From sequence record MT764208.1: DNA of 64,000 nucleotides. One strand, 5' to 3'. This DNA is from Escherichia phage JEP8. Every line of letters starts with the position of its first letter. Within the stretch, counting starts at the first letter, position 1. A program made the translations under genes and the position numbers. Under the pieces are notes generated by a model, which ran no database searches, was not told where the DNA came from, and worked only from the letters and a program-made list of their open reading frames with translations. Below, in pieces: positions 21,154 through 58,938 of this stretch.

Positions 21154-21181
21154 TATTATAGCATACTCCCTTCGCATGTCA
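21154..21181 (-). promoter_or_regulatory. sigma70-type early promoter (TTGACA-N16-TATAAT)
   Basis: Minus strand TTGACA (21181..21176), TATAAT (21159..21154), then GAGGATTATATT-ATG leader. Confidence 0.6.
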
Positions 21182-22357
21182 AGCACTAACTTTTTTCTTT
21201 ACTGCTTTCACCTTCTGGCGAATTGCTCGAATCTCTTCGATCTCTTTTTCAGTCTCTTTAACAATTTCTTTGCGATTCTGAATATCTGTATCGAGATTAT
21301 CATCAAGTTTAGGCAGCATGTCAATCAAGAACTTTTTAAAGTCTTTCAGGTTTCGGATAACAGCACCTTCACCCATTACCGCCACCCCTACACCATCCGG
21401 CAGATCACCAAACAGCTTAACCAGTTCAGACAGATGATCATGATCTTCTAGTGCTTCTTCCGGTTCAGATGGCAGTTCAACAAAGTTATAACGTTCATCA
21501 TTGCTGATCAAGTGATACCAGCAAAGCCCAAAAGATTTAGGAGTATATTCTACACCATCAACTTCAACCGCGTCAACACTTCCGAAAGAATCTACTTTAG
21601 TTGCCTTAAATCCGTGTTCCAGCTTTTGAACAATTTCAATAACATGACTGGATACGGTTTCCGTATTAAACCAATGAGGCAAATTATGTGGATTTGGCTT
21701 GTAGCGTTCGCCTACTTTAAATCTCTGACCACGCTCTTGCATACGGACATATTCAACTCGCGTGATTTCCGCGAAGTATTCAAATTCGCCACCGTCAAAC
21801 ACACAAGCCCATTGATCACAAAAACGATCTGCCTTAACAGTTTCACCTTTCGCGGTGATCATGGTAGCTGATCCGTGCAATTCTTCTTCAACTAAAAAGC
21901 CATATTCGACAAAATCAACAAGTTTCATAGCTTCTTTGTGATCTGGATCATGCTCTCCCCAGAATCGCTTAAATTCTTGCAAACCTTCTGGGGTAAACGA
22001 ATAACATTTACCTTTTTCAAAGTAAGTCGGCATTGCATCCTCTTTCTTGTTCATCGCTTCGTATGCCTCTTTTGAGATGCGTTTAAAGTATTTACGCTCA
22101 TTGTGCATAATCATAGTAGCCCAATAATCAACAATATCATTAGCGGAATAAACTACATCTCCAGCTTCAATAGTAATAACATGACCGTGGTCATCTTTTT
22201 CTAATACTTTAAAGCCCTTTTCTACGATTTCAGCAACCCGAATATGACCACGGCGCGAAGCATCGGTCAGAATAATTGAATAGCGAGAAAAGTCTAGAAA
22301 CTCATCTTTACCACCTTCACGGAATGCATAGTAATGACCTTCAAAGAATTTAGCCAT
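21179..22357 (-). CDS. Hypothetical protein (392 aa) with repeated domains of the paralog family
   Basis: Shares ERKYFKRISK..., GFKVLEKDD... and a C-terminal ...NLKDFKKFLIDM helical region with 22414..22980. Confidence 0.6.
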   Translation of the reverse strand: MAKFFEGHYYAFREGGKDEFLDFSRYSIILTDASRRGHIRVAEIVEKGFKVLEKDDHGHVITIEAGDVVYSANDIVDYWATMIMHNERKYFKRISKEAYEAMNKKEDAMPTYFEKGKCYSFTPEGLQEFKRFWGEHDPDHKEAMKLVDFVEYGFLVEEELHGSATMITAKGETVKADRFCDQWACVFDGGEFEYFAEITRVEYVRMQERGQRFKVGERYKPNPHNLPHWFNTETVSSHVIEIVQKLEHGFKATKVDSFGSVDAVEVDGVEYTPKSFGLCWYHLISNDERYNFVELPSEPEEALEDHDHLSELVKLFGDLPDGVGVAVMGEGAVIRNLKDFKKFLIDMLPKLDDNLDTDIQNRKEIVKETEKEIEEIRAIRQKVKAVKKKVSA

Positions 22358-22413: not shown

Positions 22414-22980
22414 TCAAGCGTTAAATGACTTTTGGATCTCTTTCAGTTCAGCTACTTTATCGGCGCTGAATTTAGCGTAGGTATCATGTCGAATAATTTC
22501 ACTTTCAAGAAAGGTTTCCAGCCGAGATCTATTTTCAATAAGGAACTCTTTCAGGTCTTCCGCGTTCTTGATAAAGATTTTATTGTCAGTAATGTCATCT
22601 TCAATCGCAAAGGAGATAGAGCGAACTTTACCAAACAAGTTAATCAGATCTTCCAGAGATTCTTCTTTCTTAACTGGTTTCATTTCTTCAAACTGCTTTT
22701 TAGTGATGCGTTTAAAGTATTTGCGCTCGCTTGCATCAATCATGATTGACGCACCCTCATAATCATGAGTTTCTACCAAATACACTTTACCCATAACATT
22801 AACCGTAAGAACTTTAAAGCCCCTGTGAAGCACACCATACAGGAACTTGTTATGTTGTGGATAGCGTTTAACAAATTCCTCTGCGGACTCAGCATTACGG
22901 AAAGTGTAATAACGACCTCGTTCAAAAACAGCATCATTTGAAGACTTAGCTGGATACAATTTATACGTTTTCTGTACCAT
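22414..22980 (-). CDS. Hypothetical protein, paralog of 21179..22357
   Basis: ASERKYFKRITKKQFEEM, GFKVLTVNVMGKV, ...NAEDLKEFLIEN. Start set to the ATG with GAGGA RBS (MVQKTYKLY...). Confidence 0.6.
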   Translation of the reverse strand: MVQKTYKLYPAKSSNDAVFERGRYYTFRNAESAEEFVKRYPQHNKFLYGVLHRGFKVLTVNVMGKVYLVETHDYEGASIMIDASERKYFKRITKKQFEEMKPVKKEESLEDLINLFGKVRSISFAIEDDITDNKIFIKNAEDLKEFLIENRSRLETFLESEIIRHDTYAKFSADKVAELKEIQKSFNA

Positions 22981-22994
22981 AATATAATCCTCTA

Positions 22995-23267
22995 TCATTT
23001 CACTAATTGAACAGCACGGAACAGAATGCGCTCACACGGAAGCAGCATAAATTCCCAACGCGGATCAAAGTCTTTAGCGGTGTATGTTTTCCCATCAACC
23101 GAGATTTCACTTACATAACCAACAGGTGACACTTTAAGAACAGTAAATCCATTCTTGATGACTTCGTAGGTATCTTTCACTCCTTCGTATTCATCATCTA
23201 AGAAGTCTTTACGTGCTTGCTCAGATTTAAAAACATAGGCAACACCGGATTTAAACATCTTACGCAT
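22995..23267 (-). CDS. Hypothetical protein, WEVGKTY-family single-domain member
   Basis: VAYVFKSEQARKDF...GFTVLKV...ISVDGKTY; start set to the ATG with AAGGAGAA RBS. Confidence 0.55.
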   Translation of the reverse strand: MRKMFKSGVAYVFKSEQARKDFLDDEYEGVKDTYEVIKNGFTVLKVSPVGYVSEISVDGKTYTAKDFDPRWEFMLLPCERILFRAVQLVK

Positions 23268-23330
23268 TGTTGATTCTCCTTCTTGATTAGATGGGAGCAT
23301 TTTACTACTCCCATTTCTTATTGTCAACTA

Positions 23331-23804
23331 CTATCTTAAACTTTTTATGAATTGTTTCTTATACTTCTTCGTGATCTCTTCTCTTGTATCAGCGTCGCAG
23401 TAATCGAAACCTTCTGCGTCCATAATAGCAACCATCTCCGCGCGGGTCAAGCGTGAAAATAGTTTTACTTTATCAACGGCATATTGAGGATGTAAATGAT
23501 TGTTGGTGTAGTCTCCTTTGATGTAATTAACATAGTTTGTAGCCCAAACAACGAAATCAGCACCTAAAGCACCAACACCAAACCGCTTAAAGTCTCCGGT
23601 CAACGATCCTTCTAGGCGGTTGCAACACGAATGAAGCAATCCCCTTACGCGGCCTTGCCCTTTCCCATCTAGATCATGATCATGGTCAAGATGGTTTTTG
23701 CTCATATCCTCAAAAAGTGGCAATTGACAAAGGGGGCAAATGCCCCCCTGTTTTTCGAATAGTTCTTGTTTGTACTCTTTAGCACTCTTAGCAGTCAGTA
23801 ACAT
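23331..23804 (-). CDS. 49: Endonuclease VII (Holliday junction resolvase) gp49
   Basis: MLLTAKSAKEYKQ...CPLCQ...HLDHDH...GLLHSCCN matches T4 endonuclease VII; ATG at 23804 with GGAGGGTG RBS. Confidence 0.85.
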   Translation of the reverse strand: MLLTAKSAKEYKQELFEKQGGICPLCQLPLFEDMSKNHLDHDHDLDGKGQGRVRGLLHSCCNRLEGSLTGDFKRFGVGALGADFVVWATNYVNYIKGDYTNNHLHPQYAVDKVKLFSRLTRAEMVAIMDAEGFDYCDADTREEITKKYKKQFIKSLR

Positions 23805-23828
23805 AAATTCACCCTCCAAAGAAGGTAT

Positions 23829-24110
23829 TTAACCATTAATCTTGTTTTTGACTACAAAGGATCTGAACTCATCAAAACCACCTATATAATCACCATTATA
23901 GAAAATCTGCGGCATGGTGGCAATAACTTCTACCCCTGAGCGATCCTGAATGTCGGCAATGATAGAATCAATCTTTACCGGACGACCGTTTTCGTCTACA
24001 CCATCATTAACCGGAATGTAGATGTAAGGGATCTTACGCGATTCACAAAGGCGCTTTGCATTCTGGCAATACTTACAGTTGTAACCTTCAAAACCAAAAA
24101 TTTCTACCAT
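23829..24110 (-). CDS. nrdC: Thioredoxin/glutaredoxin NrdC-like
   Basis: CKYCQNAKRL...MPQIF..GDYIGGFDE pattern as in T4 NrdC; ~93 aa. Confidence 0.8.
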   Translation of the reverse strand: MVEIFGFEGYNCKYCQNAKRLCESRKIPYIYIPVNDGVDENGRPVKIDSIIADIQDRSGVEVIATMPQIFYNGDYIGGFDEFRSFVVKNKING

Positions 24111-24118
24111 GTTATACC

Positions 24119-24931
24119 TCAATCTACGTTAGTTACATAAACTTCTTGCGTATCAGAAGACTTACCACCTGAACGATCTAGGCAATAGGTCTTATTCAAC
24201 AGGACGCAGTTTAAATCATTCCGCTTGATAAAGTCAAGGAGATGATCATTTACCTTTCCCTTATGATGTGTGACATTACTGATACCAAACTGAAAACCAC
24301 GCGCCATAATAGATTCTACCCACTGATAGAATTTAATCTCTTCCTCGTTACTCCAGAACTTATTGTATTCCGCAGAAGTGATAAGGTACGGCGGGTCCAA
24401 ATAAACGAAATCACCTGGCAAGATCTCGATCTCGTCATAGCGACCAGACGTAAAACTGATTCGACCGTCTTTGTTTTCTTCCTTAAAATTCAGGACACGC
24501 TCTACCGCGTTTTCGTTAAAAGTCCGGCGACCAAAATTAGCATTAAATTCTCCCTTTCGGTTATGGCGGTTAATGTTGCTAAAACTGTGCTGAATCAACA
24601 CAAACAGAGATAGCGGATCTGGATTCTCGTTATACTTCTTACGGAATATCATGTAAGCGTCTTTATCATCACGAGACAAATCATTTTCGGCAATAATACG
24701 CTTGATCGTAGAAACCGGATCAGGACACTCGTCAATCGCTTTGTACGCGTCAATTAAGCGGTGATCATAGTCATTAGCCAGCACATCACCTTCGACGTAC
24801 AGAGACACGCTCAAGCCGCCACAGAAGGCATCAACAAAGCGGTTATAGCGCTTAGGGAAATACTTACTAACACCGGGCAATAGCTTTTCCTTATTGCCAG
24901 TATAGGGAATTAAACCTAATGCTTTCTTCAT
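24119..24931 (-). CDS. dam: DNA adenine methyltransferase (Dam, alpha-class)
   Basis: N-terminal YTGNK, motif I FVDAFCGGLSVS, catalytic DPPY (FVYLDPPYLITSAEYNKFW); near-collinear with T4 Dam. Confidence 0.9.
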   Translation of the reverse strand: MKKALGLIPYTGNKEKLLPGVSKYFPKRYNRFVDAFCGGLSVSLYVEGDVLANDYDHRLIDAYKAIDECPDPVSTIKRIIAENDLSRDDKDAYMIFRKKYNENPDPLSLFVLIQHSFSNINRHNRKGEFNANFGRRTFNENAVERVLNFKEENKDGRISFTSGRYDEIEILPGDFVYLDPPYLITSAEYNKFWSNEEEIKFYQWVESIMARGFQFGISNVTHHKGKVNDHLLDFIKRNDLNCVLLNKTYCLDRSGGKSSDTQEVYVTNVD

Positions 24932-25362
24932 TATCCCTTCCTCAAATAAGTTCGCTCAATCTCTACCAGTTCGAAAAAATCTTGCCAGTCGCAAGGAAAA
25001 TTGCAGTTTCCGAAATGATCCTCTTTGTAAAGTTCTTTACCGGATGGCAGCTTAATATCTGTTACGCTGTAGTATCCGCAACAATCGCAATCACCATCTG
25101 TATATTCTGTTTTGGTAGGAATATCCATCATTGCCAGATACAAAGGTACATCGTCTTGCTCAAAGTTCATGTAACCTTCATGGTCGAATGAAACAAAGTT
25201 ATCATCGCCACCGAAAGGGATATAATGGTCATAATCGGTTACAGGTTGACCGTGCAATTCCCATTCTACAATTTTAACATTACCGCTAAACTTGATGCCC
25301 ATAATTTCAACAAGAAAATGAGTATCGTCAATGTAAATCTTACTAGGAGTTGGATAACCCAT
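24931..25362 (-). CDS. Hypothetical protein (Cys-rich C-terminal region)
   Basis: 143-aa ORF; DGDCDCCGYY...CNFPCDW. Confidence 0.55.
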   Translation of the reverse strand: MGYPTPSKIYIDDTHFLVEIMGIKFSGNVKIVEWELHGQPVTDYDHYIPFGGDDNFVSFDHEGYMNFEQDDVPLYLAMMDIPTKTEYTDGDCDCCGYYSVTDIKLPSGKELYKEDHFGNCNFPCDWQDFFELVEIERTYLRKG

Positions 25363-25372
25363 TATATAATCC

Positions 25373-25669
25373 TCATATCTCAGAGAATAGAATCTCTGTT
25401 AGCTTCACTGACTGCTCTCTGAATGTTAGCGTATACTCGAAAGGAAAGTCAACACCCAACTTCAAAAGAGAATAGCCTACCGCCTCTTTATGCTTATCGG
25501 TTAGGGCGATCCTAACCAATTCCCGTTGAATCTCTTTAGGCGGTGAATGGATAGTAACACGGGTATCATGTAATGTCCAGTCACCATTTCGAATTAAGAT
25601 TAACGGTTTATCATCATTGAAGATCACCGACCCCTTTCCGGTCGGTGAATGTTTTATATTAATCATCAA
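25373..25669 (-). CDS. Hypothetical protein
   Basis: 98-aa ORF. Confidence 0.5.
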   Translation of the reverse strand: MMINIKHSPTGKGSVIFNDDKPLILIRNGDWTLHDTRVTIHSPPKEIQRELVRIALTDKHKEAVGYSLLKLGVDFPFEYTLTFREQSVKLTEILFSEI

Positions 25670-25880
25670 ATTCTAAGAAATATTCTGGAACGATATAACC
25701 GTTAAAGTCATTGCACTTATAAAAATGTGGTGCATTCAATGCTGGATGAGCATTAGTAAAGAGTTTACCCTCTAGAAACAGAATGTAATTAATCGGTCTA
25801 ATACCGACAGAATCAGGATCTAAACCTTTTTCTTTCAGTTCAGCCAGCGTTAAAACTCGTCCAGATCGTAACTTAGCCAT
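25659..25880 (-). CDS. Hypothetical protein
   Basis: 73-aa ORF. Confidence 0.45.
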   Translation of the reverse strand: MAKLRSGRVLTLAELKEKGLDPDSVGIRPINYILFLEGKLFTNAHPALNAPHFYKCNDFNGYIVPEYFLEFDD

Positions 25881-26166
25881 GATTTACCCCCAATTCATCA
25901 AGATTATGTCGCAGCATTTCAGAGTATTTTTCTACTTCCTTGATCTTAGTGTGGATCTCCACGATCTCATCTTCACTATCAGATAGTTTAATGGCAATCG
26001 CGAGCGTGCTTTTACCAGCTTTCATAGTCTCTTTCCGTTCAACCAATAGATCCGCGTGTTTCAATAGCAATTCTTCACGTCGAACATAAGCGACGGTCAA
26101 AGCCTCATCAGCGATTTCTAAAGCATTTTCAGCGACACCAACAACCATTTTACGAGTAGACAGCAT
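25873..26166 (-). CDS. Hypothetical protein
   Basis: 97-aa ORF. Confidence 0.5.
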   Translation of the reverse strand: MLSTRKMVVGVAENALEIADEALTVAYVRREELLLKHADLLVERKETMKAGKSTLAIAIKLSDSEDEIVEIHTKIKEVEKYSEMLRHNLDELGVNHG

Positions 26167-26180
26167 AAATTCACCTCACA

Positions 26181-26489
26181 TTATTTCACGTTAACGCCGT
26201 CATCAATCCAGCCGACGCTATTTTGTTTAACAGTTTTACCATAGGATGCATACTTAATCAAGCATGGTTTAACATCATTATCAAATCTTCCTAAACGTAC
26301 TCCCAAATCAGGAATATCCATGTATGCGGCTTTATATCCCCATGTGCCGTATTCAGAATCAATCTCAACCGGACGGCCTTTAAAAGCATACACTACACCG
26401 TGACGGTCAACGATAACATAGCGATAGCCAGCCGGAAGATACACAGTTTCGCCGTAAACTTTAACTGGAGTAGCAGAAGAGATAAACAT
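26181..26489 (-). CDS. Hypothetical protein
   Basis: Start set to the ATG (MFISSATPVKVYG...) preceded by GAGGATTATATT. Confidence 0.55.
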   Translation of the reverse strand: MFISSATPVKVYGETVYLPAGYRYVIVDRHGVVYAFKGRPVEIDSEYGTWGYKAAYMDIPDLGVRLGRFDNDVKPCLIKYASYGKTVKQNSVGWIDDGVNVK

Positions 26490-26523
26490 AATATAATCCT
26501 CACATCGTTCATTTGATGCGGTC

Positions 26524-26552
26524 ATTATATGATAACCGCATTTTCATGTCAA
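26524..26552 (-). promoter_or_regulatory. sigma70-type early promoter (TTGACA-N17-TATAAT)
   Basis: Minus strand TTGACA (26552..26547) and TATAAT (26529..26524). Confidence 0.6.
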
Positions 26553-26559
26553 CAGTTTT

Positions 26560-26869
26560 TTAAAAATCTTCTTCCGGTTTATATCGACCGTCATCGACTG
26601 GTTTTGGACTGAATCCTTTATGCGTGCGCGGCTTCGCTTCCGGTTTACCAGCAATCATCAAACCAAAACATTTCAGCCCCTTATAACACATAACAATATC
26701 AACCACGGTCCACGTTATAGGCCATACGATTGCAGCAATACAAAATGCTCCTGTATCGACCTCTTTGGTGTCCTTGTCGAATCTGGCGTACAAGCAGAAT
26801 ACTAGATACGAGATCATTGCACCAGTAGTCCAGATATAAAGCACATTAACAATATCTTGTGTTGTCACA
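26560..26869 (-). CDS. Hypothetical membrane protein
   Basis: Hydrophobic segments; probable GTG start at 26869 with AGGAGG 5 nt upstream. Confidence 0.5.
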
Positions 26870-26878
26870 TTATCCTCC

Positions 26879-27157
26879 TTACATGTCTTGCAGTGCATAA
26901 AAGCATTTTTCTTCATAGTCATAGAAAATGTCAAAGTATGCTTTTTCCACATACTCGCCATTAATCCAAGCGGCAGTAACAATCAGAGTGGTCCAGTTAG
27001 ATCCGCTCTCAACGGTAAAGGTTTTAATACCCAGCTTCGCTGCCAAGTCGAACGCAAACCGGACGCAACCACGGCAGGAAGTGATATTGGAAGTTTTGAT
27101 TTTAAAGCCACCGCGAGTTTTAGAAATTTCTACTTTAGCGAAAGACAGGTTGCTCAT
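26879..27157 (-). CDS. Hypothetical protein
   Basis: Start at the ATG with AAGGAGAATCAAA leader (MSNLSFAKVEI...). Confidence 0.55.
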   Translation of the reverse strand: MSNLSFAKVEISKTRGGFKIKTSNITSCRGCVRFAFDLAAKLGIKTFTVESGSNWTTLIVTAAWINGEYVEKAYFDIFYDYEEKCFYALQDM

Positions 27158-27199
27158 TTTGATTCTCCTTAAGAAAGTGTGTTTCGTTTTGATGTGTGT

Positions 27200-27228
27200 A
27201 GTATAGGGGATCACCGATCCCCTGTCAA
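27200..27228 (-). promoter_or_regulatory. sigma70-type early promoter cassette (TTGACA-N17-TATACT)
   Basis: Minus strand TTGACA (27228..27223), TATACT (27205..27200), then the ...CAUCAAAACGAAACAC... leader. Confidence 0.55.
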
Positions 27229-27236
27229 CAACTTTT

Positions 27237-27500
27237 TTATGATTTTAGTGAATTAACCACCACATCAAAATGATGTACAGAGTACACCTTATTAAACACA
27301 TATTCATCGTGTTTAGGAATCGCCCCTAATCGCTCTATTTCGCTCGCTAACACGATAAAACGTTTATCCGGTGCATTTACCTTATATGCTTCAACAACGC
27401 ACGGAAAACGCGTTTTAGCGAGTTCGGGATAGTTTTCTGACTCCATCAGGACAATGAATACCCTATTACATTGATTGTAGAATCCGGTTTTTGATTTCAT
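27237..27500 (-). CDS. Hypothetical protein
   Basis: Start trimmed to an internal ATG to limit overlap with the upstream ORF; start uncertain. Confidence 0.45.
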   Translation of the reverse strand: MKSKTGFYNQCNRVFIVLMESENYPELAKTRFPCVVEAYKVNAPDKRFIVLASEIERLGAIPKHDEYVFNKVYSVHHFDVVVNSLKS

Positions 27501-27807
27501 CAAGTTTTCTTCTCTGTGAAATTCGTGCAATCTTCCTTTCATGATTTCGTTGGTTCTTGTCTTCACAGTTTACCCACTCAACAAGGTCTTTACCTAACTC
27601 GAAAGCCCATTCTCGGTCCTGCTTTACGTTTTGTAGGTATGGACTTTCCGACACTCGAAGAAGTGATCTTGTCGTAACAAGAATGATCTCAGGAATGTTC
27701 GGATGTTCCTTTCCATATACAATAGGACGCGAGTCACTATCAATACCCTGTAAGAAGGTGTATCCTGAATCACTTAGAATCATATACTTTTTCATTTCAC
27801 ACATCAC
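27466..27807 (-). CDS. Hypothetical protein
   Basis: 113-aa ORF. Confidence 0.5.
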   Translation of the reverse strand: MMCEMKKYMILSDSGYTFLQGIDSDSRPIVYGKEHPNIPEIILVTTRSLLRVSESPYLQNVKQDREWAFELGKDLVEWVNCEDKNQRNHERKIARISQRRKLDEIKNRILQSM

Positions 27808-28061
27808 AGTTTCCTCAACCAGTTATTAAAGCGAGCAAACCATGACGCTTTTCGTGCTTCTTTTACTTTATGTGCACGCAAACCACTGAAACACCATTCA
27901 TAATCATCACTGAAATATGATTCAACAGGAACACCCGCATTTCGTAGTTCTCTGGTCTTTATCATGAATCCTTGACATAAGGGGCGACCTTCAACAATGA
28001 TAGGAAGTTTAACTTTTTCCATGAAAGTATACCCAGCACGGTCAATAATTTCAATTTTCAT
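27804..28061 (-). CDS. Hypothetical protein
   Basis: 85-aa ORF. Confidence 0.5.
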   Translation of the reverse strand: MKIEIIDRAGYTFMEKVKLPIIVEGRPLCQGFMIKTRELRNAGVPVESYFSDDYEWCFSGLRAHKVKEARKASWFARFNNWLRKL

Positions 28062-28305
28062 TTACATTATCTCCATAGATCTTTCCATCAATATCAATTT
28101 CACCAGCACGAACATCTAGGATAAGATGCGGTAGGTGAATGCAGTTTTCCCACCCTACTCGCTTCATTTCTGAAACAGTGACGTAAGCCCACCCGTTCGC
28201 TGTAATAAAGTCTACTTCAACCTTGAGAGGAAAGCAAGACTTTTCTATGTCTTCAAATCCGATAATGTGTTTTGTCGTTGAATATGGAATATATCCGGTG
28301 ATCAT
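28051..28305 (-). CDS. Hypothetical protein
   Basis: 84-aa ORF. Confidence 0.5.
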   Translation of the reverse strand: MITGYIPYSTTKHIIGFEDIEKSCFPLKVEVDFITANGWAYVTVSEMKRVGWENCIHLPHLILDVRAGEIDIDGKIYGDNVNEN

Positions 28306-28736
28306 TTTGTGATCTCCTTATACTCAACACACCATAAGCGGGTAGCCCATGATAAACGCTCATAACGCTGGCAGAAATCGGACCATAGATATTGTGTACC
28401 GTCTTGCATGGTTGAAATATGCGTTTTCTCACCTACTTTCACGAAAGAAGTATTCGATTTTGTGATCTCGACCGGAGTATATCCGAAAGCGGGTTCCAAG
28501 CCAACATCTGAACTAAATGCCAATTTAACAGAATTTGTTTTTCTGACCGCTGTCCGGTTTCCTTCTGGGTACAGCACAGCAGGTTTAGCGCCTAAGCGGA
28601 TAAACTCAGTGTTTTTAATAAACAGAATATCATGATAACCGTCATATTCCGACACTTCCATAGTAACAGGAAAATCGACATGTTCTAAACCTGGTAGATC
28701 TCGCATATCATGAAAGGTCGCCATCAACTTTTTCAT
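28302..28736 (-). CDS. Hypothetical protein
   Basis: Start at the ATG with GAGGA RBS (MKKLMATFHD...). Confidence 0.5.
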   Translation of the reverse strand: MKKLMATFHDMRDLPGLEHVDFPVTMEVSEYDGYHDILFIKNTEFIRLGAKPAVLYPEGNRTAVRKTNSVKLAFSSDVGLEPAFGYTPVEITKSNTSFVKVGEKTHISTMQDGTQYLWSDFCQRYERLSWATRLWCVEYKEITK

Positions 28737-28746
28737 TCTATATTCC

Positions 28747-28944
28747 TCACTCTTCTGTTTCATTTCTTTTATATGGTACTATAACAGGATTAATACAGCA
28801 AGCACCAATTACGTTATGAGCACCACAATTTAAGCATTTATAATCATGGAACTTATTAAGGAATCGACCAAACTCATAACCGACTAGCGCCGCATGTACT
28901 TGAGTCTCGATCTCATCCATATCAGCCAATGTTTTAACCTTCAT
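28747..28944 (-). CDS. Hypothetical small Cys-containing protein
   Basis: Start at the ATG preceded by GAGGATTATATT (MKVKTLADM...); CxxC...CC pattern. Confidence 0.5.
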   Translation of the reverse strand: MKVKTLADMDEIETQVHAALVGYEFGRFLNKFHDYKCLNCGAHNVIGACCINPVIVPYKRNETEE

Positions 28945-28954
28945 AATATAATCC

Positions 28955-29245
28955 TCAAATTGTAGTTTTGCGAAGATGGTCATTACATGCTTTTAATGCA
29001 TCGGTCGCGGTGTCATAGCGAGTATTATCATAGCACCAATAACCATCTGTCAACTGATAAATTAATCCATCCTTTTTAGCTTCGATGAAAGACAATTCTT
29101 TGAAAGTTTCTACTTTCTTTGCTGATACTCCACGGTCACGTCGCTTATACAGTTTAGCTAAAATGCGTTCAGCTTGTTCCTCTTTATCTCCAGACAGATC
29201 CCAGATGATGTTTCGGATATGCTTGATTAATTGTTCAGTGGTCAT
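28955..29245 (-). CDS. Hypothetical protein
   Basis: 96-aa ORF downstream of a promoter cassette. Confidence 0.55.
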   Translation of the reverse strand: MTTEQLIKHIRNIIWDLSGDKEEQAERILAKLYKRRDRGVSAKKVETFKELSFIEAKKDGLIYQLTDGYWCYDNTRYDTATDALKACNDHLRKTTI

Positions 29246-29274
29246 CTTTGATTCTCCTTAGTTGGTATGCGTGC

Positions 29275-29302
29275 ATTATAGCATTGTGATTATCTTTGTC
29301 AA
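29275..29302 (-). promoter_or_regulatory. sigma70-type early promoter (TTGACA-N16-TATAAT)
   Basis: Minus strand TTGACA (29302..29297), TATAAT (29280..29275), then GCACGCAUACCAACUAAGGAGAAUCAAAG-AUG. Confidence 0.65.
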
Positions 29303-29307
29303 CACCC

Positions 29308-29340
29308 AAAAACAAAAAAGGCTACCCCGAAGGATAGCCC
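29308..29340 (-). terminator. Rho-independent terminator downstream of the gp38-like gene
   Basis: Minus strand GGGCUAUCC-UUCG-GGGUAGCC hairpin followed by UUUUUUGUUUUU. Confidence 0.65.
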
Positions 29341-29346
29341 ATAAAA

Positions 29347-30126
29347 TTACACGCGAGCACCGTAGATCGTGCCTACTTTATCCCAGCGAGGGGCATTGCC
29401 AGTAACAGCCTTACCAGCCGCTCCGCCATTATATTCCGATCCCCGTCCACGGATATTACATTTACCACCAGCGCCACCAGCATCACCACCGTTACCGCCA
29501 TTATATACACCGTTGACAGACCCTTTACCTGGCGCGGAAATAGTACCAGCAGTAGCACCCTGTTCCATTTTAGCAGACCCACCAGCAGCGCCAAATGGAC
29601 GACCGCCGCCACCTCCAAAAGTCAATTTCATTTGTGGAAAAGGAGACCAGTATCCTCCGCCACCACCACCACCGCCACCGCAAATAGCGCCGTTATTTGT
29701 GATGCGTAAGCGTGTGCCTATACCGTTGTTAATTGCATTACCACCAGCACCACCAGCGGAGTTATTGCCACCATTACCACCACGCCCCCAAACATGAACA
29801 CCTGCATTAATGATCAATGTTACATATTCGTTTGTTAACGAGCTAGGGAAGTCAAGACAAGGAACGCCAGTAGATTGGGAAACAATATTACCCGTGATAG
29901 TAATTACTACCGGAGTAGATCCTTGTGCTTTCATCCAGTTAATAAGAGTGTCTTTATTGTAAGAGTTACTAGCACCAATGCTATAATGAATCTCTTTAGA
30001 GCGTCCGACCATTGCCGACATATACGCCGGACGACCTAAGCGTACAGCTTGCATTGCGGCGCTCATCCACCGTTGACCAGTCTCGGACACCGCAGATGAT
30101 CCTACCCATCCAGAAGATATTGCCAT
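29347..30126 (-). CDS. gp38-like glycine-rich receptor-binding adhesin (T2-type)
   Basis: N-terminal WVGSSAVSETGQRWM...NTLINWMKAQG, GRGGNGGNNS, poly-Gly run GGGGGGGGG, GGGGGRPFG and C-terminal ...TIYGARV match the T2/T6-type gp38 adhesin as recalled; 259 aa. Confidence 0.75.
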   Translation of the reverse strand: MAISSGWVGSSAVSETGQRWMSAAMQAVRLGRPAYMSAMVGRSKEIHYSIGASNSYNKDTLINWMKAQGSTPVVITITGNIVSQSTGVPCLDFPSSLTNEYVTLIINAGVHVWGRGGNGGNNSAGGAGGNAINNGIGTRLRITNNGAICGGGGGGGGGYWSPFPQMKLTFGGGGGRPFGAAGGSAKMEQGATAGTISAPGKGSVNGVYNGGNGGDAGGAGGKCNIRGRGSEYNGGAAGKAVTGNAPRWDKVGTIYGARV

Positions 30127-30138
30127 AAAATTTCCTCA

Positions 30139-30162
30139 CAAGAAAAGCCCCAATTAAGGGGC
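30139..30162 (-). terminator. Hairpin/terminator between the 73-aa ORF and the gp38-like gene
   Basis: Minus strand GCCCC-UUAAUU-GGGGC followed by UUUUCUU. Confidence 0.45.
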
Positions 30163-30180
30163 ATTGATTGATAATATTAC

Positions 30181-30402
30181 TTAGATGACCTCTGCTTCAC
30201 CATCCAGGAAGAAAGACCATGTTTTGTTAGGATAGCGAAGCGCCCATGATTCAGCAGTTTTAACACCAGCTTCGAACAATTGACGGCTGGTTACTTTAGC
30301 CATACCATCTTCGATGGCAACGTTTTCAATAATCATCGGGTACTTAGCGCCACGCATGAAACCGAAACCAGCGGAAGATTTGATAATTTTAACAGTTGCC
30401 AT
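30181..30402 (-). CDS. Hypothetical protein (73 aa), co-transcribed upstream of the gp38-like gene
   Basis: ATG preceded by the AGGAGAATCAAAA leader and a promoter cassette. Confidence 0.55.
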   Translation of the reverse strand: MATVKIIKSSAGFGFMRGAKYPMIIENVAIEDGMAKVTSRQLFEAGVKTAESWALRYPNKTWSFFLDGEAEVI

Positions 30403-30443
30403 TTTTGATTCTCCTAGAAAGTGTATCTCGTTTCGATGTGTGT

Positions 30444-30473
30444 ATTATGCAATAACACCGGAACGCTGTCAAC
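30444..30473 (-). promoter_or_regulatory. sigma70-type early promoter (TTGACA-N18-CATAAT)
   Basis: Minus strand TTGACA (30473..30468) and CATAAT (30449..30444), then the ACACACAUCGAAACGAG leader. Confidence 0.6.
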
Positions 30474-30490
30474 ACTTTCTAAGAAAAATT

Positions 30491-30775
30491 TTAAACTAAT
30501 CGAATGTAGCCCAAAATTTCAGCACTTTTAGCCAGATCTAAAATTTCCCATTCAAGATCGCCGTAGTCATAATTTGCAACCATCAACTGACCATTTTTCA
30601 TGCAGCAATCATGAGAGAAAATTTGCCCCGCATAAACTACGATAGTGATAAACTTTCCTGATTCTGGCGGTGTGGAAGACAAAGCGACCATATGACCATT
30701 CAGCTTAGTCACCAGTGATGGAACAATAAAATTCGGGCTTACCTTAATACCGTTAAATTCGTTTGTGTCTTTCAT
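30491..30775 (-). CDS. Hypothetical protein
   Basis: 94-aa ORF. Confidence 0.5.
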   Translation of the reverse strand: MKDTNEFNGIKVSPNFIVPSLVTKLNGHMVALSSTPPESGKFITIVVYAGQIFSHDCCMKNGQLMVANYDYGDLEWEILDLAKSAEILGYIRLV

Positions 30776-31122
30776 GCCAGACCTCGCAAAACACTAATAG
30801 CATAATCATGCTGGTTATTCATAATATCAATTGCATTGTGATAACGAGCTAAACCATCAAGGATAAATTCTTGTTTATCCTGTTTCAGTTTGGTATCACG
30901 CGCAGCCATAAGAGCATCGAGAACAGGTCCAAAGTGATTATCTAATTCATCTTCGGTTGCAATGTTTCCTATTGCCTCGTCGATCCGTGATTCTAATGCT
31001 TGCTTTTCGTTGATCACTTGCTGGGTATATTCCAACACATCAAGAATATCGCGGGTAACGTCGCCGTGATAAGGTATTCCCGCATGAAGATGATCAATTA
31101 ATCGCTGAATATCGATGTTCAT
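30772..31122 (-). CDS. Hypothetical protein
   Basis: 116-aa ORF. Confidence 0.5.
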   Translation of the reverse strand: MNIDIQRLIDHLHAGIPYHGDVTRDILDVLEYTQQVINEKQALESRIDEAIGNIATEDELDNHFGPVLDALMAARDTKLKQDKQEFILDGLARYHNAIDIMNNQHDYAISVLRGLA

Positions 31123-31457
31123 TTGTAACCCTCCTCTGAAAGCACATCCCAGATCGTTGAGTCAAGGTGCATTAAATTCCACATAATAGAGTCATAACTA
31201 CCGAAGCCAGAAGTAAAAATTACATCACACTGGCGATAGGTCTTATGAAAATCGGTGGCTGTCTCTGCATCAATCGGCATATCGTCACCAGAAAGCACCA
31301 GACATTTAAGAATCATAACTCTGTTAGCCGTTGGCGCTTGCTTAGTCTTTTCAGCATATTTTTCGATGATCCGTTTTGCCTTTTCTTCTTTGATACGTCC
31401 AGACCAAATCCGGTTTCGGTATTGATTCATAATAATTTCAATCACATCATTTTGCAT
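31119..31457 (-). CDS. Hypothetical protein
   Basis: 112-aa ORF. Confidence 0.5.
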   Translation of the reverse strand: MQNDVIEIIMNQYRNRIWSGRIKEEKAKRIIEKYAEKTKQAPTANRVMILKCLVLSGDDMPIDAETATDFHKTYRQCDVIFTSGFGSYDSIMWNLMHLDSTIWDVLSEEGYK

Positions 31458-31656
31458 TCTTCACGGTCTCCATAATTGTTTTGTAAGCCAGTTTAAGATG
31501 ATCACCGAAAAACTTTGCAGTGTTACCCTTCGGATCGCGGAGCATGGTTTCTACGATCTCATCGGCAGTAACAATTTCTCCTTTCTTTGCTGCATGTTCT
31601 ACCATATACTTCAAAGTTTCTTCGGAAGCAAGTGCTGCGGCTACTGGATTAATCAT
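31447..31656 (-). CDS. Hypothetical protein
   Basis: 69-aa ORF downstream of a promoter cassette. Confidence 0.5.
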   Translation of the reverse strand: MINPVAAALASEETLKYMVEHAAKKGEIVTADEIVETMLRDPKGNTAKFFGDHLKLAYKTIMETVKNAK

Positions 31657-31685
31657 TTTGATTCTCCTTTGTTGTCGATGTATGC

Positions 31686-31714
31686 ATTATGCTATACCCT
31701 ATTCCGGTTGTCAA
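31686..31714 (-). promoter_or_regulatory. sigma70-type early promoter (TTGACA-N17-CATAAT)
   Basis: Minus strand TTGACA (31714..31709) and CATAAT (31691..31686). Confidence 0.6.
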
Positions 31715-31720
31715 CACCTA

Positions 31721-31750
31721 AAAACGAAAAAGCCACCCTTTCGGATGGCT
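31721..31750 (-). terminator. Rho-independent terminator
   Basis: Minus strand AGCCAUCC-GAAA-GGGUGGCU followed by UUUUUCGUUUUU. Confidence 0.6.
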
Positions 31751-31983
31751 TTTGATTATATTTTATTCTAATCCATTTGTATAGTAGTGTTTGAATCGAC
31801 CTTTGCTAAACTCGTTAAACATAGTAACCAATTTACCACCACTTTCCAATGATAGCACTTCCTCGTCTTAGACGGGTCTTCCGATTCGGCAGTAATTGAA
31901 CACGCGAAAGTATGAGGAAGCCAAATAGTTGTGTTAATGCTAGTATTCTTTTACTTCTGGTATGCATCCCACAGTGACTAACA

Positions 31984-32382
31984 TTAAGCCAGTCGAGTGA
32001 GTTTATAAATTGTTTTAAAGCATAGAGCTTTGATATCGTCTAAAACGCTCTGTAACGAGCTATCAACATCATTATAAATCTCACTAGCCATTTGCGTTAA
32101 CTCTTGCAAATAGGCAATTTCGCTCATCTCCTTGCGGACGACCAACGTTGGCTGATAACGACCAGTGATCCCAATATTGGTTTCAGTGAAATCATCAACC
32201 AATTCTTGCATTTCAAGATAGAACTCTTCTAGAGCCTTATGTTTTGCATAAGATCCAGGACCAGTTACTCCAAAATGCGCAGAATGCATATAAGTAACAC
32301 TCATCAGACATTCACCGATAAAGCGGTCAACTTTATTAGCTTTCCCCTCTTCGGACGTCTTTAGAAAATCAATGAATTTCAT
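31984..32382 (-). CDS. Hypothetical protein, possibly ferritin/Dps-like four-helix bundle (weak)
   Basis: Start trimmed to MKFIDFLK...; motif HSAHFGVTGPGSYAKHKALEEFY loosely resembles Dps helix A/B region. Confidence 0.4.
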   Translation of the reverse strand: MKFIDFLKTSEEGKANKVDRFIGECLMSVTYMHSAHFGVTGPGSYAKHKALEEFYLEMQELVDDFTETNIGITGRYQPTLVVRKEMSEIAYLQELTQMASEIYNDVDSSLQSVLDDIKALCFKTIYKLTRLA

Positions 32383-32671
32383 GTTCTTTATTCTCCATAT
32401 TATGCAACATAACAAACTGTTGTGCGGCATATTCCCCCATAATAAAACACTGCTTAGAATCCATACATTTACTACGAGCATACATCTTCATAATATGGGC
32501 ATGAAATTTCTGGCTGGTTTCAATGGAAGGAGATATTTTGTTTACATATACTATCATTGCACCGTCGAAATAATCAGTAAAGTCACCAGTTGGATCATAT
32601 TGATCAGCACTGACGCTTCCGACCGCAGTAAAGCATATTGCCGCTGTTAGAGTTTTACGAATAAATGACAT
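32369..32671 (-). CDS. Hypothetical secreted/periplasmic protein
   Basis: N-terminal signal-peptide-like MSFIRKTLTAAICFTAVGSVSA. Confidence 0.5.
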   Translation of the reverse strand: MSFIRKTLTAAICFTAVGSVSADQYDPTGDFTDYFDGAMIVYVNKISPSIETSQKFHAHIMKMYARSKCMDSKQCFIMGEYAAQQFVMLHNMENKEHEIH

Positions 32672-32740
32672 AAGTCATTCCCCCAGATTTAAAAATATTC
32701 AGTTATATTTATAATCTGGGGCTTTATTTATGATTAACTC

Positions 32741-33337
32741 TTAGTTGGTAGTACCATCAATAAAATGTTTACGGCACACAGAAACATATTTATCCTCTGC
32801 ACCAACTTCGATTTGAGCACCATCGCGAATAACATTACCCTCTTTATCTACACGAAGGACCATTGTTGCTTTCTTGCCACAATGACAAATACCCTTCATT
32901 TCGACCAGTTTATCAGCAAATGCCATTAATGCCGCAGATCCTTCAAATAGATTGCCCTGAAAGTCAGTGCGAAGGCCATAGCACAGTACAGGGATATTTG
33001 CATCATCAACAAGCGCACACAAGCCTAAAACATGCTCTTTAGTCATAAATTGGGCTTCATCTACAAAAACTGCATCTGGACGCCATCGATCCGGTCTACG
33101 CTTACCTAACGATTCACGATAAACCAAGTCGAAAAGATCATCCGATTTAGTGAAGGTGATCGCTGGAGCACTTAGGCCAATTCGGGAAACAACTTCACTT
33201 TCTGAATCTCGATTATCAATCGCTGGCTTAAGAATTAATACTCGCATATCACGTTCGGTATAGTTATAAGCACTTTGTAACAGGGAAGTTGATTTGCCAG
33301 CGTTCATAGATGCATAGTAGAAATATAATTGCGCCAT
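32741..33337 (-). CDS. tk: Thymidine kinase
   Basis: P-loop MNAGKST near the N-terminus, DEAQF, and C-terminal Zn-binding cysteines (C..C...C..H); 198 aa. Confidence 0.9.
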   Translation of the reverse strand: MAQLYFYYASMNAGKSTSLLQSAYNYTERDMRVLILKPAIDNRDSESEVVSRIGLSAPAITFTKSDDLFDLVYRESLGKRRPDRWRPDAVFVDEAQFMTKEHVLGLCALVDDANIPVLCYGLRTDFQGNLFEGSAALMAFADKLVEMKGICHCGKKATMVLRVDKEGNVIRDGAQIEVGAEDKYVSVCRKHFIDGTTN

Positions 33338-33630
33338 TAATTAATCTCCAAAAATCCAGCAAGACCTAAACCGATATAAACCCAGATACAAAGGAAAAAG
33401 AAGCAAACACCCATAGCAAAGATAAATCCGCGTAGTGTCTTTGGATAACCTACCCAATATTCCCGACCATCTTCTAACCGGATCAGCTTATTTCCTTGAG
33501 AGTCCATATCAATTACAACATGTTTATTTCTGGATTGTAACAGATACTGCTTGACAATCTCAATACCCGCCATAATAACAATAACGAAAATAAAAGTCCA
33601 CACAACAAGATTAATGATAGTCTCAAGCAT
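33337..33630 (-). CDS. Hypothetical membrane protein
   Basis: Two hydrophobic segments. Confidence 0.5.
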   Translation of the reverse strand: MLETIINLVVWTFIFVIVIMAGIEIVKQYLLQSRNKHVVIDMDSQGNKLIRLEDGREYWVGYPKTLRGFIFAMGVCFFFLCIWVYIGLGLAGFLEIN

Positions 33631-48039: not shown

Positions 48040-48516
48040 CTATTTGTTAAGCCCTTTAAAGCCAAACACTTTCTTTAATGCATGTTCGGTTATGATCTTA
48101 AACTCCATGTTATGCTTTTGGCACAAATCAACCGCAGCTTTCCACTTTTCCGTGTTTACAGTATATGTGTAACACTCTTGCATGTATCTTTGCTTAGTCT
48201 TAGTGGTTATTCTTTTTGGCCTTTCCGGTGGCCGTGTCTCTTTTGCCGGTTTAACTTCCCACAAGAACTCTTTACCATCTACAAATTTCACCCAAAAATC
48301 CATATGATACTTTCTGGATCGTTTATCTGCGCTAGACCAGTAAGGTATAATCACACACTCAGAGTTCCATTTAGACACGCTAGGACTACGGTCCAAAAAT
48401 TTCATTATGTGCAATTCCCAGCTTGATCTATAAGTGATTTTATGCAAGTTGTTTCCTTTGTACTTCTCAGGATTTTCTGGCTTGAACTTGCCCTTATAAG
48501 TGTTAGATCCTCCCAT
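48040..48516 (-). CDS. 4: Head completion protein gp4
   Basis: 158 aa; position between 53 and 2 on the opposite strand to 53. Confidence 0.7.
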   Translation of the reverse strand: MGGSNTYKGKFKPENPEKYKGNNLHKITYRSSWELHIMKFLDRSPSVSKWNSECVIIPYWSSADKRSRKYHMDFWVKFVDGKEFLWEVKPAKETRPPERPKRITTKTKQRYMQECYTYTVNTEKWKAAVDLCQKHNMEFKIITEHALKKVFGFKGLNK

Positions 48517-48531
48517 TTTAGCACCCTTTAT

Positions 48532-48539
48532 TATAAATA
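48532..48539 (+). promoter_or_regulatory. T4-type late promoter core TATAAATA upstream of gene 53
   Basis: Exact TATAAATA 33 nt upstream of the gene 53 ATG. Confidence 0.6.
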
Positions 48540-48571
48540 CATAATACTATTTATCAATTGAGGGTGCTAAA

Positions 48572-49126: not shown

Positions 49127-49137
49127 GGTGATTAATT

Positions 49138-50937: not shown

Positions 50938-50945
50938 GGTAACTA

Positions 50946-51512: not shown

Positions 51513-51578
51513 TGGCTGGCGGGTGTCGATGCCCCGCCGTCATAAATAGTTATATAATGATTTAATATGAGGTGTTTT

Positions 51579-52319: not shown

Positions 52320-52612
52320 TGGCTGGTTTATCATATGACAAAGCAAAAACTACTGGACATGGTAATTACGGTCCGACAATAATTAATGCAACTCAATCTA
52401 AGGTATTTGTTGAGGGTATCCCTGTATTAGTCGAAGGAGACCCAATTACACCACACACAAAAACAACAAAGCCTTATGATACACACGGGGGAACTACGGT
52501 CGCCAGTACCCCGAAAGTATTTGTTACCGGAAAGAAAGCAATTCAAATGGCAGATCGTATTAGCTGTGGCGATACCGTCGCTATGGCATCACCGAAGGTA
52601 TTCATAAAATGA
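52316..52612 (+). CDS. 5.4: PAAR-repeat spike-tip protein gp5.4
   Basis: 98 aa; position before gene 6; PAAR-like repeated beta-strand motifs ([19 protein letters not shown]...[10 protein letters not shown]...KVFIK). Confidence 0.8.
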
Positions 52613-58584: not shown

Positions 58585-58596
58585 GTGTATGATTTA

Positions 58597-58634: not shown

Positions 58635-58635
58635 G

Positions 58636-58664: not shown

Positions 58665-58693
58665 GCTCACATCTAAACAACGGAGGATAAATT

Positions 58694-58927: not shown

Positions 58928-58938
58928 GGAACTAGAAA

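Follow-up and report, generated by a model that had tools for sequence, protein, structure and literature searches.

The gp38 of phage T4 is an assembly chaperone that is absent from the virion and unrelated to the gp38 adhesins of other T-even-type phages, with which it shares the gene number and, in several database records, the name. In T4 it is gp37 that provides the adhesin function, through a C-terminal domain unrelated to the small adhesins of the gp38 type (PMC3157838, PMC4122927). In phages of the S16, T2/T6 and PP01 type, gp38 has a two-part architecture, consisting of a gp37-docking N-terminus and glycine motifs that alternate with hypervariable loops, and its gene (g38) is located directly behind g37 in the late tail-fibre operon, for instance in the order g37-g38-t in slur13. 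The displacement of g38 in RB49-like phages (Krischvirus) was first reported in 2002 (Desplats, as cited by Trojet 2011, PMC3157838) and was given again in a 2026 preprint, at ~55 kb from g37, and the promoters and terminators of RB49 were catalogued in 2006. RB49 and Phi1 also contain the promoter-early stem-loop (PeSL) cassettes described by Arbiol et al. 2010 (PMC2839356), which are defined by an intergenic sigma-70 consensus promoter, a stable stem-loop, and a Shine-Dalgarno sequence with the start of an ORF, repeated through hyperplastic regions.

Here, we describe g38 in a 64-kb window of Escherichia phage JEP8, the window being the whole stretch of DNA that was analysed. It belongs to a Krischvirus genome and is ~97-98% identical at the DNA level to Sf20, GoldenSnicker, GEC-3S and RB49, and many Krischvirus genomes match it at ~97% over 24 kb, while identity to Sf20, GoldenSnicker and GEC-3S at the g38 locus is 98%. 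Gene, locus (nrdC/dam ... ORF80-g38 ... rI/tk), strand and the layout of promoter, hairpin and terminator are all the same as for the "displaced" g38 of RB49, Phi1, JSE and GEC-3S, the difference being confined to the allele of the receptor-binding half. The displaced g38 is thus already known and genus-wide, and the finding is correct but ordinary; as publications have described the displacement from 2002 onward, a preliminary description of this DNA, made from the sequence alone, overrated its surprise value. What we add is the swapping of one half within the gene, a weak hairpin before g38 and the lack of a late promoter nearer than rI. We consider it very probable that the locus as a whole represents a single functional Krischvirus g38 at a fixed, displaced position, which is diversified by intragenic swapping and expressed from early promoters.

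A full-length gp38 adhesin gene on the early strand

The gene and its surroundings comprise the following features.

29347..30126, minus strand: g38, long-tail-fibre tip adhesin (receptor-recognising protein), 259 aa plus stop, ATG start
29827..30126, minus strand: g38 codons 1-100, N-terminal part including the putative gp37-docking domain, conserved in the genus
29347..29826, minus strand: g38 codons 101-259, glycine-rich receptor-binding domain with hypervariable segments between the motifs and a conserved 14-residue tail
30181..30402, minus strand: 73-aa ORF, first gene after the promoter, co-oriented with and upstream of g38; PHROG 7345 (4.9e-34), function unknown
24119..24931, minus strand: dam
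32369..32671, minus strand: rI
32741..33337, minus strand: tk

The ORF at 29347..30126 is a full-length gp38 adhesin of the T2/T6/S16 type. Its product matches the Pfam families GP38 (PF05268; 5.4e-73, 245.9 bits, profile positions 1-218 of 218) and Gp38_N (PF21721; 3.9e-18, 65.6 bits, positions 1-40 of 40), exceeding in each case the curated cut-off of 25 bits over the full profile length. It also matches PHROG 2056 (4.9e-102) and aligns over its full length with the S16 gp38 of known structure (PDB 6F45_D; residues 1-257, 2e-50), and the records of Phi1 and RB49 annotate the same ORF as gene 38. An AlphaFold2 model (pLDDT 93.3, pTM 0.84) was matched by Foldseek to 6F45_D (E = 6e-22, TM 0.82/0.85) and to the receptor-binding domain of PP01 gp38 (9v85_C, TMt 0.87), the likeness in fold being judged by superposition of the whole model. 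Protein searches and superposition on S16 gp38 therefore agree with the preliminary description, which had recognised a complete gp38-like glycine-rich adhesin; the motifs it quoted are present (WVGSSAVSETGQRWM, EYVTLIINAGVHVWGRGGNGG, a nine-glycine run at residue 150, GGGGGRPFG and the ending TIYGARV) except for NTLINWMKAQG, which actually reads DTLINWMKAQG.

Glycine makes up 23% of the product and 32% of residues 101-259, and most of the invariant or near-invariant columns of the gp38 alignment are glycines (G114-G117, G128-129, G150-156, G172-175 onward), with troughs of identity between them. No hydrophobic segment or signal peptide was detected in the product, for which the maximum Kyte-Doolittle 19-residue mean is 1.24, and an identical protein sequence was not found in the assembly collection. 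By homology to the S16 gp37-gp38 complex (6F45), the N-terminal domain would dock on the tip of the gp37 trimer, so that gp38 would act as a monomeric adhesin capping each long tail fibre, while the C-terminal polyglycine-II sandwich would display hypervariable loops for binding to an outer-membrane protein and/or O-antigen as the primary receptor. A 142-aa ORF antisense to g38 (29369..29797, plus strand) was rejected as a gene, because its proline-rich product reflects the glycine codons on the opposite strand. Scans of the entire window for Rfam families and tRNA genes produced no hit.

A position directly downstream of g37 is typical of the gp38 family, though not defining, and is not what we found: g38 is carried on the early strand, in the interval from dam to rI/tk, 18.4 kb from the baseplate genes gp53, gp5, gp6, gp7 and gp8, which begin at 48572 on the plus strand, so that dam, tk, strand and distance are all as first described. 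The order nrdC/dam...g38...rI/tk is common to all relatives examined (GEC-3S, Phi1, RB49, FL37 and kaaroe). A tblastn search with gp38 returned one place in each Krischvirus record among those listed, and the 64-kb window contains neither a second gp38 copy nor g37. In the 164.3-kb genome of Phi1, g37 occupies 151.6-154.6 kb and g38 occupies 45.0-45.8 kb, which puts ~55 kb between them going round the map; Phi1 gp37 has 980 aa (PHROG 1699, 3e-197), and in RB49 gp37 carries a self-cleaving C-terminal chaperone domain (PMC9569957). Judged by relatives that are ~96-98% identical to the 64 kb seen of this phage, the gene is the sole gp38 gene and lies away from g37. The preliminary description would have yielded to an only gp38 gene adjoining g37 in a differently organised tail-fibre locus; by these relatives, the gene is indeed the only one, but it does not adjoin g37. 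Among the readings offered there, a relocated adhesin was the right one, and in JEP8 it would sit ~55 kb from g37 in an early-strand hyperplastic region between nrdC/dam and rI/tk, at a place fixed across the genus. Downstream of g37, Phi1 has the 79-aa ORF252, followed by the holin gene t. We considered ORF252 as a gp38 remnant at the canonical site and rejected it, as it belongs to the unrelated PHROG 402 and BLASTP did not align it with gp38 at a threshold as permissive as E = 100.

Exchange of the receptor-binding half

The two halves of the protein differ in their relationships. Residues 1-100 share 98-100% amino acid identity with GEC-3S, Phi1, RB49, FL37 and kaaroe, 79% with Tequatrovirus slur13 and 42% with T6, and the tail (residues 246-259) is 100% identical within the genus. 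For residues 101-245, identity is 96% to GEC-3S, 92% to slur13 and 71-72% to RB49, Phi1, FL37 and kaaroe; slur13 gp38 is thus nearer in this part than any Krischvirus allele outside the GEC-3S group, although it differs in its N-terminal domain, its canonical locus and its genus. In an alignment of six genomes, the promoters, the terminators, the 73-aa ORF and codons 1-100 of g38 were 96-100% identical and only codons ~101-245 diverged, with DNA identity at the locus falling to 0.42-0.78 in alignment columns 701-1100.

Because the divergence begins and ends inside g38, with flanks and 5' 300 nt that are 96-100% identical, the present exchange is, by this alignment, intragenic, and the genus-specific N-terminal domain marks g38 as a resident gene with a swapped C-terminal half. 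On the same comparison, g38 diversity arises by swapping of the receptor-binding half within the gene. The breakpoints inside g38 also lead us to reject exchange via PeSL cassettes as the source of allele diversity, which had been put forward as cassette-mediated shuffling; that the original relocation of g38 occurred by PeSL-mediated cassette insertion is a possibility. Host range would accordingly shift by point mutation and by recombination inside g38 that exchanges the receptor-binding half, and such exchange reaches other genera, even those with g38 at the canonical site. RB49 mutants that gained a new host carried only gp38 E230K, with or without Y231S (PMC9569957). The corresponding residues of the JEP8 allele, E231 and Y232, are both conserved. 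The 2026 preprint assigned RB49 gp38 to OmpA and another Krischvirus subtype to Tsx.

Transcription signals and expression timing

The predicted signals on the g38 strand are as follows.

29275..29340, minus strand: complete PeSL directly after g38, with a strong terminator (29340..29319) and a perfect (12/12) sigma-70 promoter (29302..29275)
30134..30137, minus strand: Shine-Dalgarno GAGG of g38 (GAGGAAATTTTATG), read from the sequence, without GGAG
30140..30162, minus strand: GC hairpin GCCCC-TTAATT-GGGGC (stem 30162..30147) with U-tract, between the 73-aa ORF and g38, candidate weak terminator or attenuator
30444..30472, minus strand: sigma-70-type early promoter, TTGACA-17 nt-CATAAT, 11/12 match, annotated in GEC-3S and equivalent to the predicted RB49 Pe:46502
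31686..31753, minus strand: next PeSL upstream, terminator 31753..31728 and promoter 31714..31686, equivalent to RB49 terminator 47750-47767 and Pe:47746
32706..32713, minus strand: nearest T4-type late promoter core (TATAAATA), before rI, equivalent to RB49 Pl:48756

The element directly after g38 has all parts of the PeSL cassettes of RB49 and Phi1, namely an upstream stop codon, a stem-loop (-14.7 kcal/mol, z = -3.1), -35 and -10 hexamers, a Shine-Dalgarno sequence and the start of the next ORF, together with the AGGAGAATCAAA ribosome-site module of that ORF. Its counterparts are annotated in GEC-3S and predicted in RB49 (terminator 45339-45360, promoter Pe:45336), and the window contains 11 copies of the AGGAGAATCAAA module where 0.5 would be expected. 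The element upstream of the 73-aa ORF (30404..30480) has the 11/12 promoter and the AGGAGAATCAAA module, and its only stem-loop is weak and not significant (-5.3 kcal/mol, z = -0.96); two other cassettes of the window, folded for comparison, gave z = -2.8 and -4.5, with the hairpin between the hexamers. The 73-aa ORF had been described as co-oriented with g38 behind a sigma-70-type promoter, and both are present, whereas the proposed bracketing of the pair by terminator/promoter cassettes holds for the downstream side, where the cassette is complete; the upstream side has a promoter but no significant stem-loop. The 73-aa ORF has no Pfam match, is kept in all relatives examined and has a weak paralogue at 27804..28061.

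The hairpin between the 73-aa ORF and g38, which the preliminary description overlooked, implies that this "two-gene unit" is interrupted by a candidate weak terminator or attenuator. The centroid fold of the hairpin alone has -11.2 kcal/mol, and the surrounding 59-nt region has a minimum free energy of -13 kcal/mol (z = -1.72). Stem and U-tract are identical in six genomes, with one loop base differing in FL37, and the hairpin is annotated as a terminator in GEC-3S and predicted as one in RB49 ("38<--ORF080c", confidence 90). GGAG occurs in the ribosome-binding sites of 8/14 neighbouring early ORFs versus 1/11 late baseplate genes, which are small numbers, and g38 resembles the latter.

On the minus strand between g38 and 32706 we found no TATAAATA late promoter core, only a one-mismatch variant within a coding region (TATGAATA, 30816-30823), and the six-genome alignment likewise revealed no late promoter near g38 in the relatives. 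The core before rI, upstream of g38, is separated from it by 2.6 kb and two terminators and corresponds to the only late promoter predicted in that part of RB49. Among T4-type phages, it is unusual for a structural gene to lack its own late promoter. A literature search, in part poorly targeted, found no Krischvirus transcriptome or virion proteome.

From these motifs we infer a model of g38 expression. The promoter at 30444..30472 would drive the 73-aa ORF and, by read-through, g38, and the upstream PeSL (31686..31753) would mark the start of a 2.4-kb early transcription unit, fed by two sigma-70-type early promoters, of which g38 would be the last gene. The weak hairpin just before g38 would attenuate transcription and hold output low, ~six copies per virion being sufficient. 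Without GGAG, the RegB cleavage motif, translation of g38 may go on after neighbouring early messages are inactivated, and some late g38 transcripts may arise by read-through from the late promoter of rI. A stricter version, in which the adhesin has left the late programme altogether, being made from sigma-70 early transcripts only, with the hairpin (30162..30147) setting the dose and the GGAG-free site protecting the message from RegB, is conceivable but rather doubtful; if true, the adhesin would accumulate before its gp37 partner exists.

Alternative readings and implications

It is extremely improbable that the gene encodes a second or alternative adhesin that extends host range beside a canonical g38 next to g37, as the preliminary description had also suggested. 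Its position is atypical for T-even phages and its receptor-binding half is nearer to the Tequatrovirus allele than to other Krischvirus alleles, but the N-terminal domain is genus-specific (98-100% identity), a gp38-like sequence is found at a single place in each of the listed Krischvirus genomes and is not repeated within the window, and the slot after g37 is filled in Phi1 by an unrelated ORF; the single copy in the relatives thus contradicts this suggestion. We give hardly more credence to an early-expressed decoy or superinfection-exclusion factor that would block receptors or incoming phage without being a virion component, a role likewise proposed at the outset. The product lacks a hydrophobic segment and a signal peptide, and could therefore not reach the outer-membrane receptors of the cell envelope. 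Furthermore, its gp37-docking N-terminal domain is complete and almost invariant within the genus, the RB49 host-range mutations E230K and Y231S map to g38 (PMC9569957), and a phage without g38 would have no adhesin at all. The early strand, the sigma-70-type promoters and the lack of a late promoter of its own speak for such a role.

The records of GEC-3S and JSE and the original record of RB49 name the product a "distal long tail fibre assembly catalyst", which would make it a T4-style assembly chaperone that is not part of the fibre; as the name is inherited from T4 and the product belongs to the adhesin family PF05268, whose S16 representative has a structure determined in complex with the gp37 tip, this function is scarcely credible. 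Finally, the 73-aa ORF and g38 could form a PeSL-bounded mobile cassette that is still moving, for example as an excised mini-circle, and exchanging host range. In RB49 and Phi1, other ORFs have been shown to be excised and inserted by way of PeSLs (PMC2839356, whose main text does not mention g38), the pair is followed immediately by a complete PeSL and preceded by a promoter that has the shared AGGAGAATCAAA module, and such an event could explain the original relocation. However, the locus does not change position among the genomes examined, the upstream element has no significant stem-loop such as a full PeSL carries, and divergence starts and stops inside the gene between flanks and a 5' 300 nt that are 96-100% identical, which leaves ongoing mobility very unlikely.

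The preferred reading, a single resident g38 at a fixed displaced locus, matters because the host range of most T-even-type phages, which serve in therapy, is determined mainly by gp38. Several records name the g38 product "assembly catalyst", "tail assembly protein" or "hypothetical protein", and annotation and engineering pipelines need to find g38 ~55 kb from g37 in RB49-like phages. The timing and dosing of a structural gene without a late promoter is a modest question. The receptor-binding half is exchanged between genera whatever the locus, which agrees with the published modular model and with recent receptor-swap experiments.

Position and copy number of gene 38

The feature considered here is the well-documented displaced gene 38 (g38) of RB49-like phages, flanked by equally well-documented PeSL elements (the promoter/stem-loop cassette class of RB49 and Phi1), and is already known. 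The gene and its surroundings are arranged as follows.

29347..30126, minus strand: g38, an ORF of 259 aa
30181..30402, minus strand: 73-aa ORF, the upstream neighbour of g38
24119..24931, minus strand: dam
32369..32671, minus strand: rI
32741..33337, minus strand: tk
from 48572, plus strand: baseplate genes gp53, gp5, gp6, gp7 and gp8, 18.4 kb from g38

The setting put forward in the preliminary description, on the early strand between nrdC/dam and tk and ~20 kb from the baseplate genes, was confirmed. The DNA of the locus is 98% identical to that of Shigella phage Sf20, Escherichia phage GoldenSnicker and the Krischvirus relative GEC-3S, and across the surrounding 24 kb its identity to many Krischvirus genomes is 96-97%; identity to RB49 and Phi1 at the locus is ~90%, with the differences concentrated in g38. 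The order nrdC-dam, small ORFs, g38, 73-aa ORF, small ORFs, rI-tk is common to GEC-3S, Phi1, RB49, FL37 and kaaroe, and the gene is called '38' in the Phi1 and RB49 records. The Phi1 tail-fibre operon, g34 to g37, occupies 145-154.6 kb; next to it comes not g38 but a 79-aa ORF, ORF252 (L003 19628..19867), and directly after that the holin gene t. ORF252, which fills the canonical g38 slot, is a PHROG 402 member, hydrophobic at its N-terminus and with a tail that is acidic, and has no similarity to gp38. Phi1 g38 is located at 45.0-45.8 kb, ~55 kb past g37 when the 164-kb map is followed round. The displacement was described by Trojet et al. 2011 (PMC3157838), citing Desplats et al. 2002, and a 2026 preprint (10.64898/2026.04.02.716166), which gives a distance of ~55 kb from g37, puts the position of g38 down to displacement or acquisition in the genus ancestor.

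The proposal that g38 is a second adhesin gene is contradicted by copy number, since tblastn (778 places in 770 records in total) gave one gp38 place per Krischvirus record among the records listed, and no second copy was found within the 64-kb window.

Several neighbouring ORFs were also inspected. A weak paralogue of the 73-aa ORF lies at 27804..28061 (minus), at a distance of 2.1 kb; the two align over 41 aa with 37% identity (E = 7e-5, from a search of a small database). In kaaroe, the homologue of this ORF has its orthologue-group label, VOG6032, in common with two ORFs close by. The adjacent ORFs 21179..22357, 22414..22998 and 22995..23300 (minus) resemble one another, with identities of 25-36% and E values from 1e-7 to 9e-4, and the two largest had no Pfam match; relatives have genes annotated as frd.2 or 'goF mRNA metabolism modulator' (twice) within this stretch. 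The mechanically called 165-aa ORF 31984..32481 (minus) overlaps rI by 113 nt and probably starts at an internal ATG, because the rI.-1 product annotated in relatives is shorter, at 132 aa. Between nrdC and dam, GEC-3S carries an HNH homing-endonuclease gene of 756 bp (L001 24..779) that Phi1 lacks at this place; the ORF spacing in the window, where the next large ORF beside dam is 23331..23819, suggests that its junction (~23820..24120) also lacks this gene.

The gp38 adhesin and the source of its diversity

Membership of the product in the gp38 adhesin family, as first proposed from the sequence, is secure. It matched Pfam GP38 over the full profile (5.4e-73), Gp38_N (3.9e-18) and PHROG 2056 ('tail fiber protein; host specificity', 4.9e-102), and the crystal structure of the S16 adhesin (6F45_D) aligned to residues 1-257 (2e-50). 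An AlphaFold2 model built with 66 homologues as input had a mean pLDDT of 93.3, and its only significant PDB matches were S16 gp38 (E = 6e-22, TM 0.82/0.85) and the PP01 gp38 receptor-binding domain; T6 gp38 and M1 gp38 are among the homologues. Glycine accounts for 23% of all residues and for 32% of those from 101 to 259; nine stand in a row at residue 150 and five at residue 171. Most motifs quoted in the preliminary description were found, with the exception of NTLINWMKAQG, which reads DTLINWMKAQG. The 142-aa proline-rich ORF antisense to g38 (29369..29797, plus), with runs such as PPPPPPPP, was rejected as a gene because it mirrors the GGN glycine codons of g38, and could be mis-called by automated gene callers.

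By homology and published genetics, a gp38 monomer would dock onto the gp37 trimer tip via its N-terminal domain, and loops of the glycine-rich domain would bind the receptor. Golomidova et al. 2022 (PMC9569957) regarded gp38 as the receptor-binding protein on the long tail fibres of RB49-like phages and found that RB49 mutants with a new host bear gp38 E230K only, with or without Y231S; the equivalents in the window are E231 and Y232. A role as an early decoy or superinfection-exclusion factor is contradicted by these RB49 genetics, by the conserved docking domain and by the lack of any export signal, and the database name that makes gp38 a T4-type chaperone is an inherited legacy label.

In an alignment of six Krischvirus loci, the promoter, 73-aa ORF, hairpin, ribosome site and g38 codons 1-100 are 96-100% identical, as are the last ~14 g38 codons and the downstream PeSL, and the drop in identity to 0.42-0.78 is limited to columns 701-1100.

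Protein identity of the window gp38 to relatives
GEC-3S: residues 1-100, 100%; residues 101-245, 96%
RB49, Phi1, FL37 and kaaroe: residues 1-100, 98-100%; residues 101-245, 71-72%
slur13 (Tequatrovirus): residues 1-100, 79%; residues 101-245, 92%

Unlike the window gene, slur13 g38 has the canonical g37-g38-t position. Identities of the N- and C-halves are uncoupled across 65 database homologues (T6: N 42%, C 75%; P0032: N 98%, C 56%). This uncoupling and the confinement of diversity within g38 therefore indicate that the receptor-binding half is swapped by intragenic recombination, across genera and whatever the locus. Such an exchange was proposed by Trojet et al. (PMC3157838), and in the engineered crosses of the 2026 preprint the distal half of the gene alone was exchanged. 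Cassette-mediated shuffling had been offered as one possible origin of the adhesin gene at this place; the breakpoints fall inside the gene, and on this pattern we rejected PeSL cassette exchange as the source of the present diversity. The same pattern argues against the 73-aa ORF and g38 being an active PeSL mobile cassette, a reading that is not supported. PeSL cassette exchange may have caused the original relocation of g38.

Control elements and expression of gene 38

The control elements of the two-gene unit, and the sites of a ribosome-site module across the window, are all on the minus strand.

30472..30444: 73-aa ORF promoter, TTGACA-17-CATAAT
30162..30147: GC hairpin and U-tract between the 73-aa ORF and g38, absent from the preliminary description
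29340..29319: strong hairpin terminator after g38 (z = -3.1)
29302..29275: 12/12 promoter after g38
17459, 23269, 27158, 29247, 30404, 31657, 41641, 42601, 44160, 44606 and 63387: AGGAGAATCAAA sites

Terminator/promoter cassettes had been described as bracketing the unit. The downstream cassette and the upstream promoter hold, and folding of the upstream element gave no significant stem-loop. The ribosome-site module AGGAGAATCAAA, with one mismatch allowed, precedes a start codon at 11 places in the window, where 0.5 would be expected, and all of them are on the early (minus) strand. A sigma-70 promoter comes before the module at the seven exact-match sites examined, with a stem-loop that either separates the -35 hexamer from the -10 hexamer (17470, 27169) or is placed upstream of -35 (29258, 31668, 44617), and both placements match published PeSL subclasses. 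Arbiol et al. 2010 (PMC2839356) defined the PeSL class, which takes in the elements flanking g38. For RB49, early promoters Pe:45336, Pe:46502 and Pe:47746 and terminators '078c<--38', '38<--080c' and '084c<--rI' were predicted in 2006 (PMC1524935 supplements).

Judging from these signals, g38 appears to be the final gene in a unit of 2.4 kb between strong terminators (31753..31728 and 29340..29319) that would be fed by two sigma-70-type promoters (31714..31686 and 30472..30444); the weak hairpin just upstream of g38 is conserved. No T4-type late promoter core was found nearer g38 than 32706..32713, in front of rI. In the 2006 survey (PMC1524935), Pl:48756 is the sole late promoter predicted in this part of RB49, neither a MotA orthologue nor a middle-promoter consensus could be found for RB49, and AsiA orthologues are reported only for RB69, 44RR, Aeh1 and KVP40. 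Across both strands of the window, variants of the late-promoter core TATAAATA with one mismatch are fewer than expected (84 versus 135 +/- 12), which suggests selection against accidental late promoters; the five exact copies are at chance level (6.4).

The g38 ribosome site GAGGAAATTTTATG contains GAGG without GGAG and looks late-type. In small samples, 1 of the 11 late baseplate genes (48500..63500, plus) has GGAG, compared with 8 of the 14 ORFs on the early strand around g38 (24900..33400, minus); these 8 include all the ORFs that come first behind a promoter. GGAG is the cleavage motif of T4 RegB, a homologue of which is annotated in GEC-3S and Phi1, and the difference in ribosome-site class may be related to RegB cleavage. 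About six copies of gp38 are needed per virion. We tentatively propose a joint model, to which we give somewhat less than an even chance, in which g38 would be made at a low level from early promoters whose transcription the hairpin attenuates, its message would be spared by RegB, and late read-through would possibly top up synthesis. Since a small GC hairpin, GAGGGCTTCGGCCCTC, also follows the g37 stop and precedes the g38 ribosome site at the canonical junction of slur13 (L004 1440..1475), such an intercistronic hairpin may be a general dosing device, not peculiar to the displaced locus. No Krischvirus transcript or proteome data were found in the literature.
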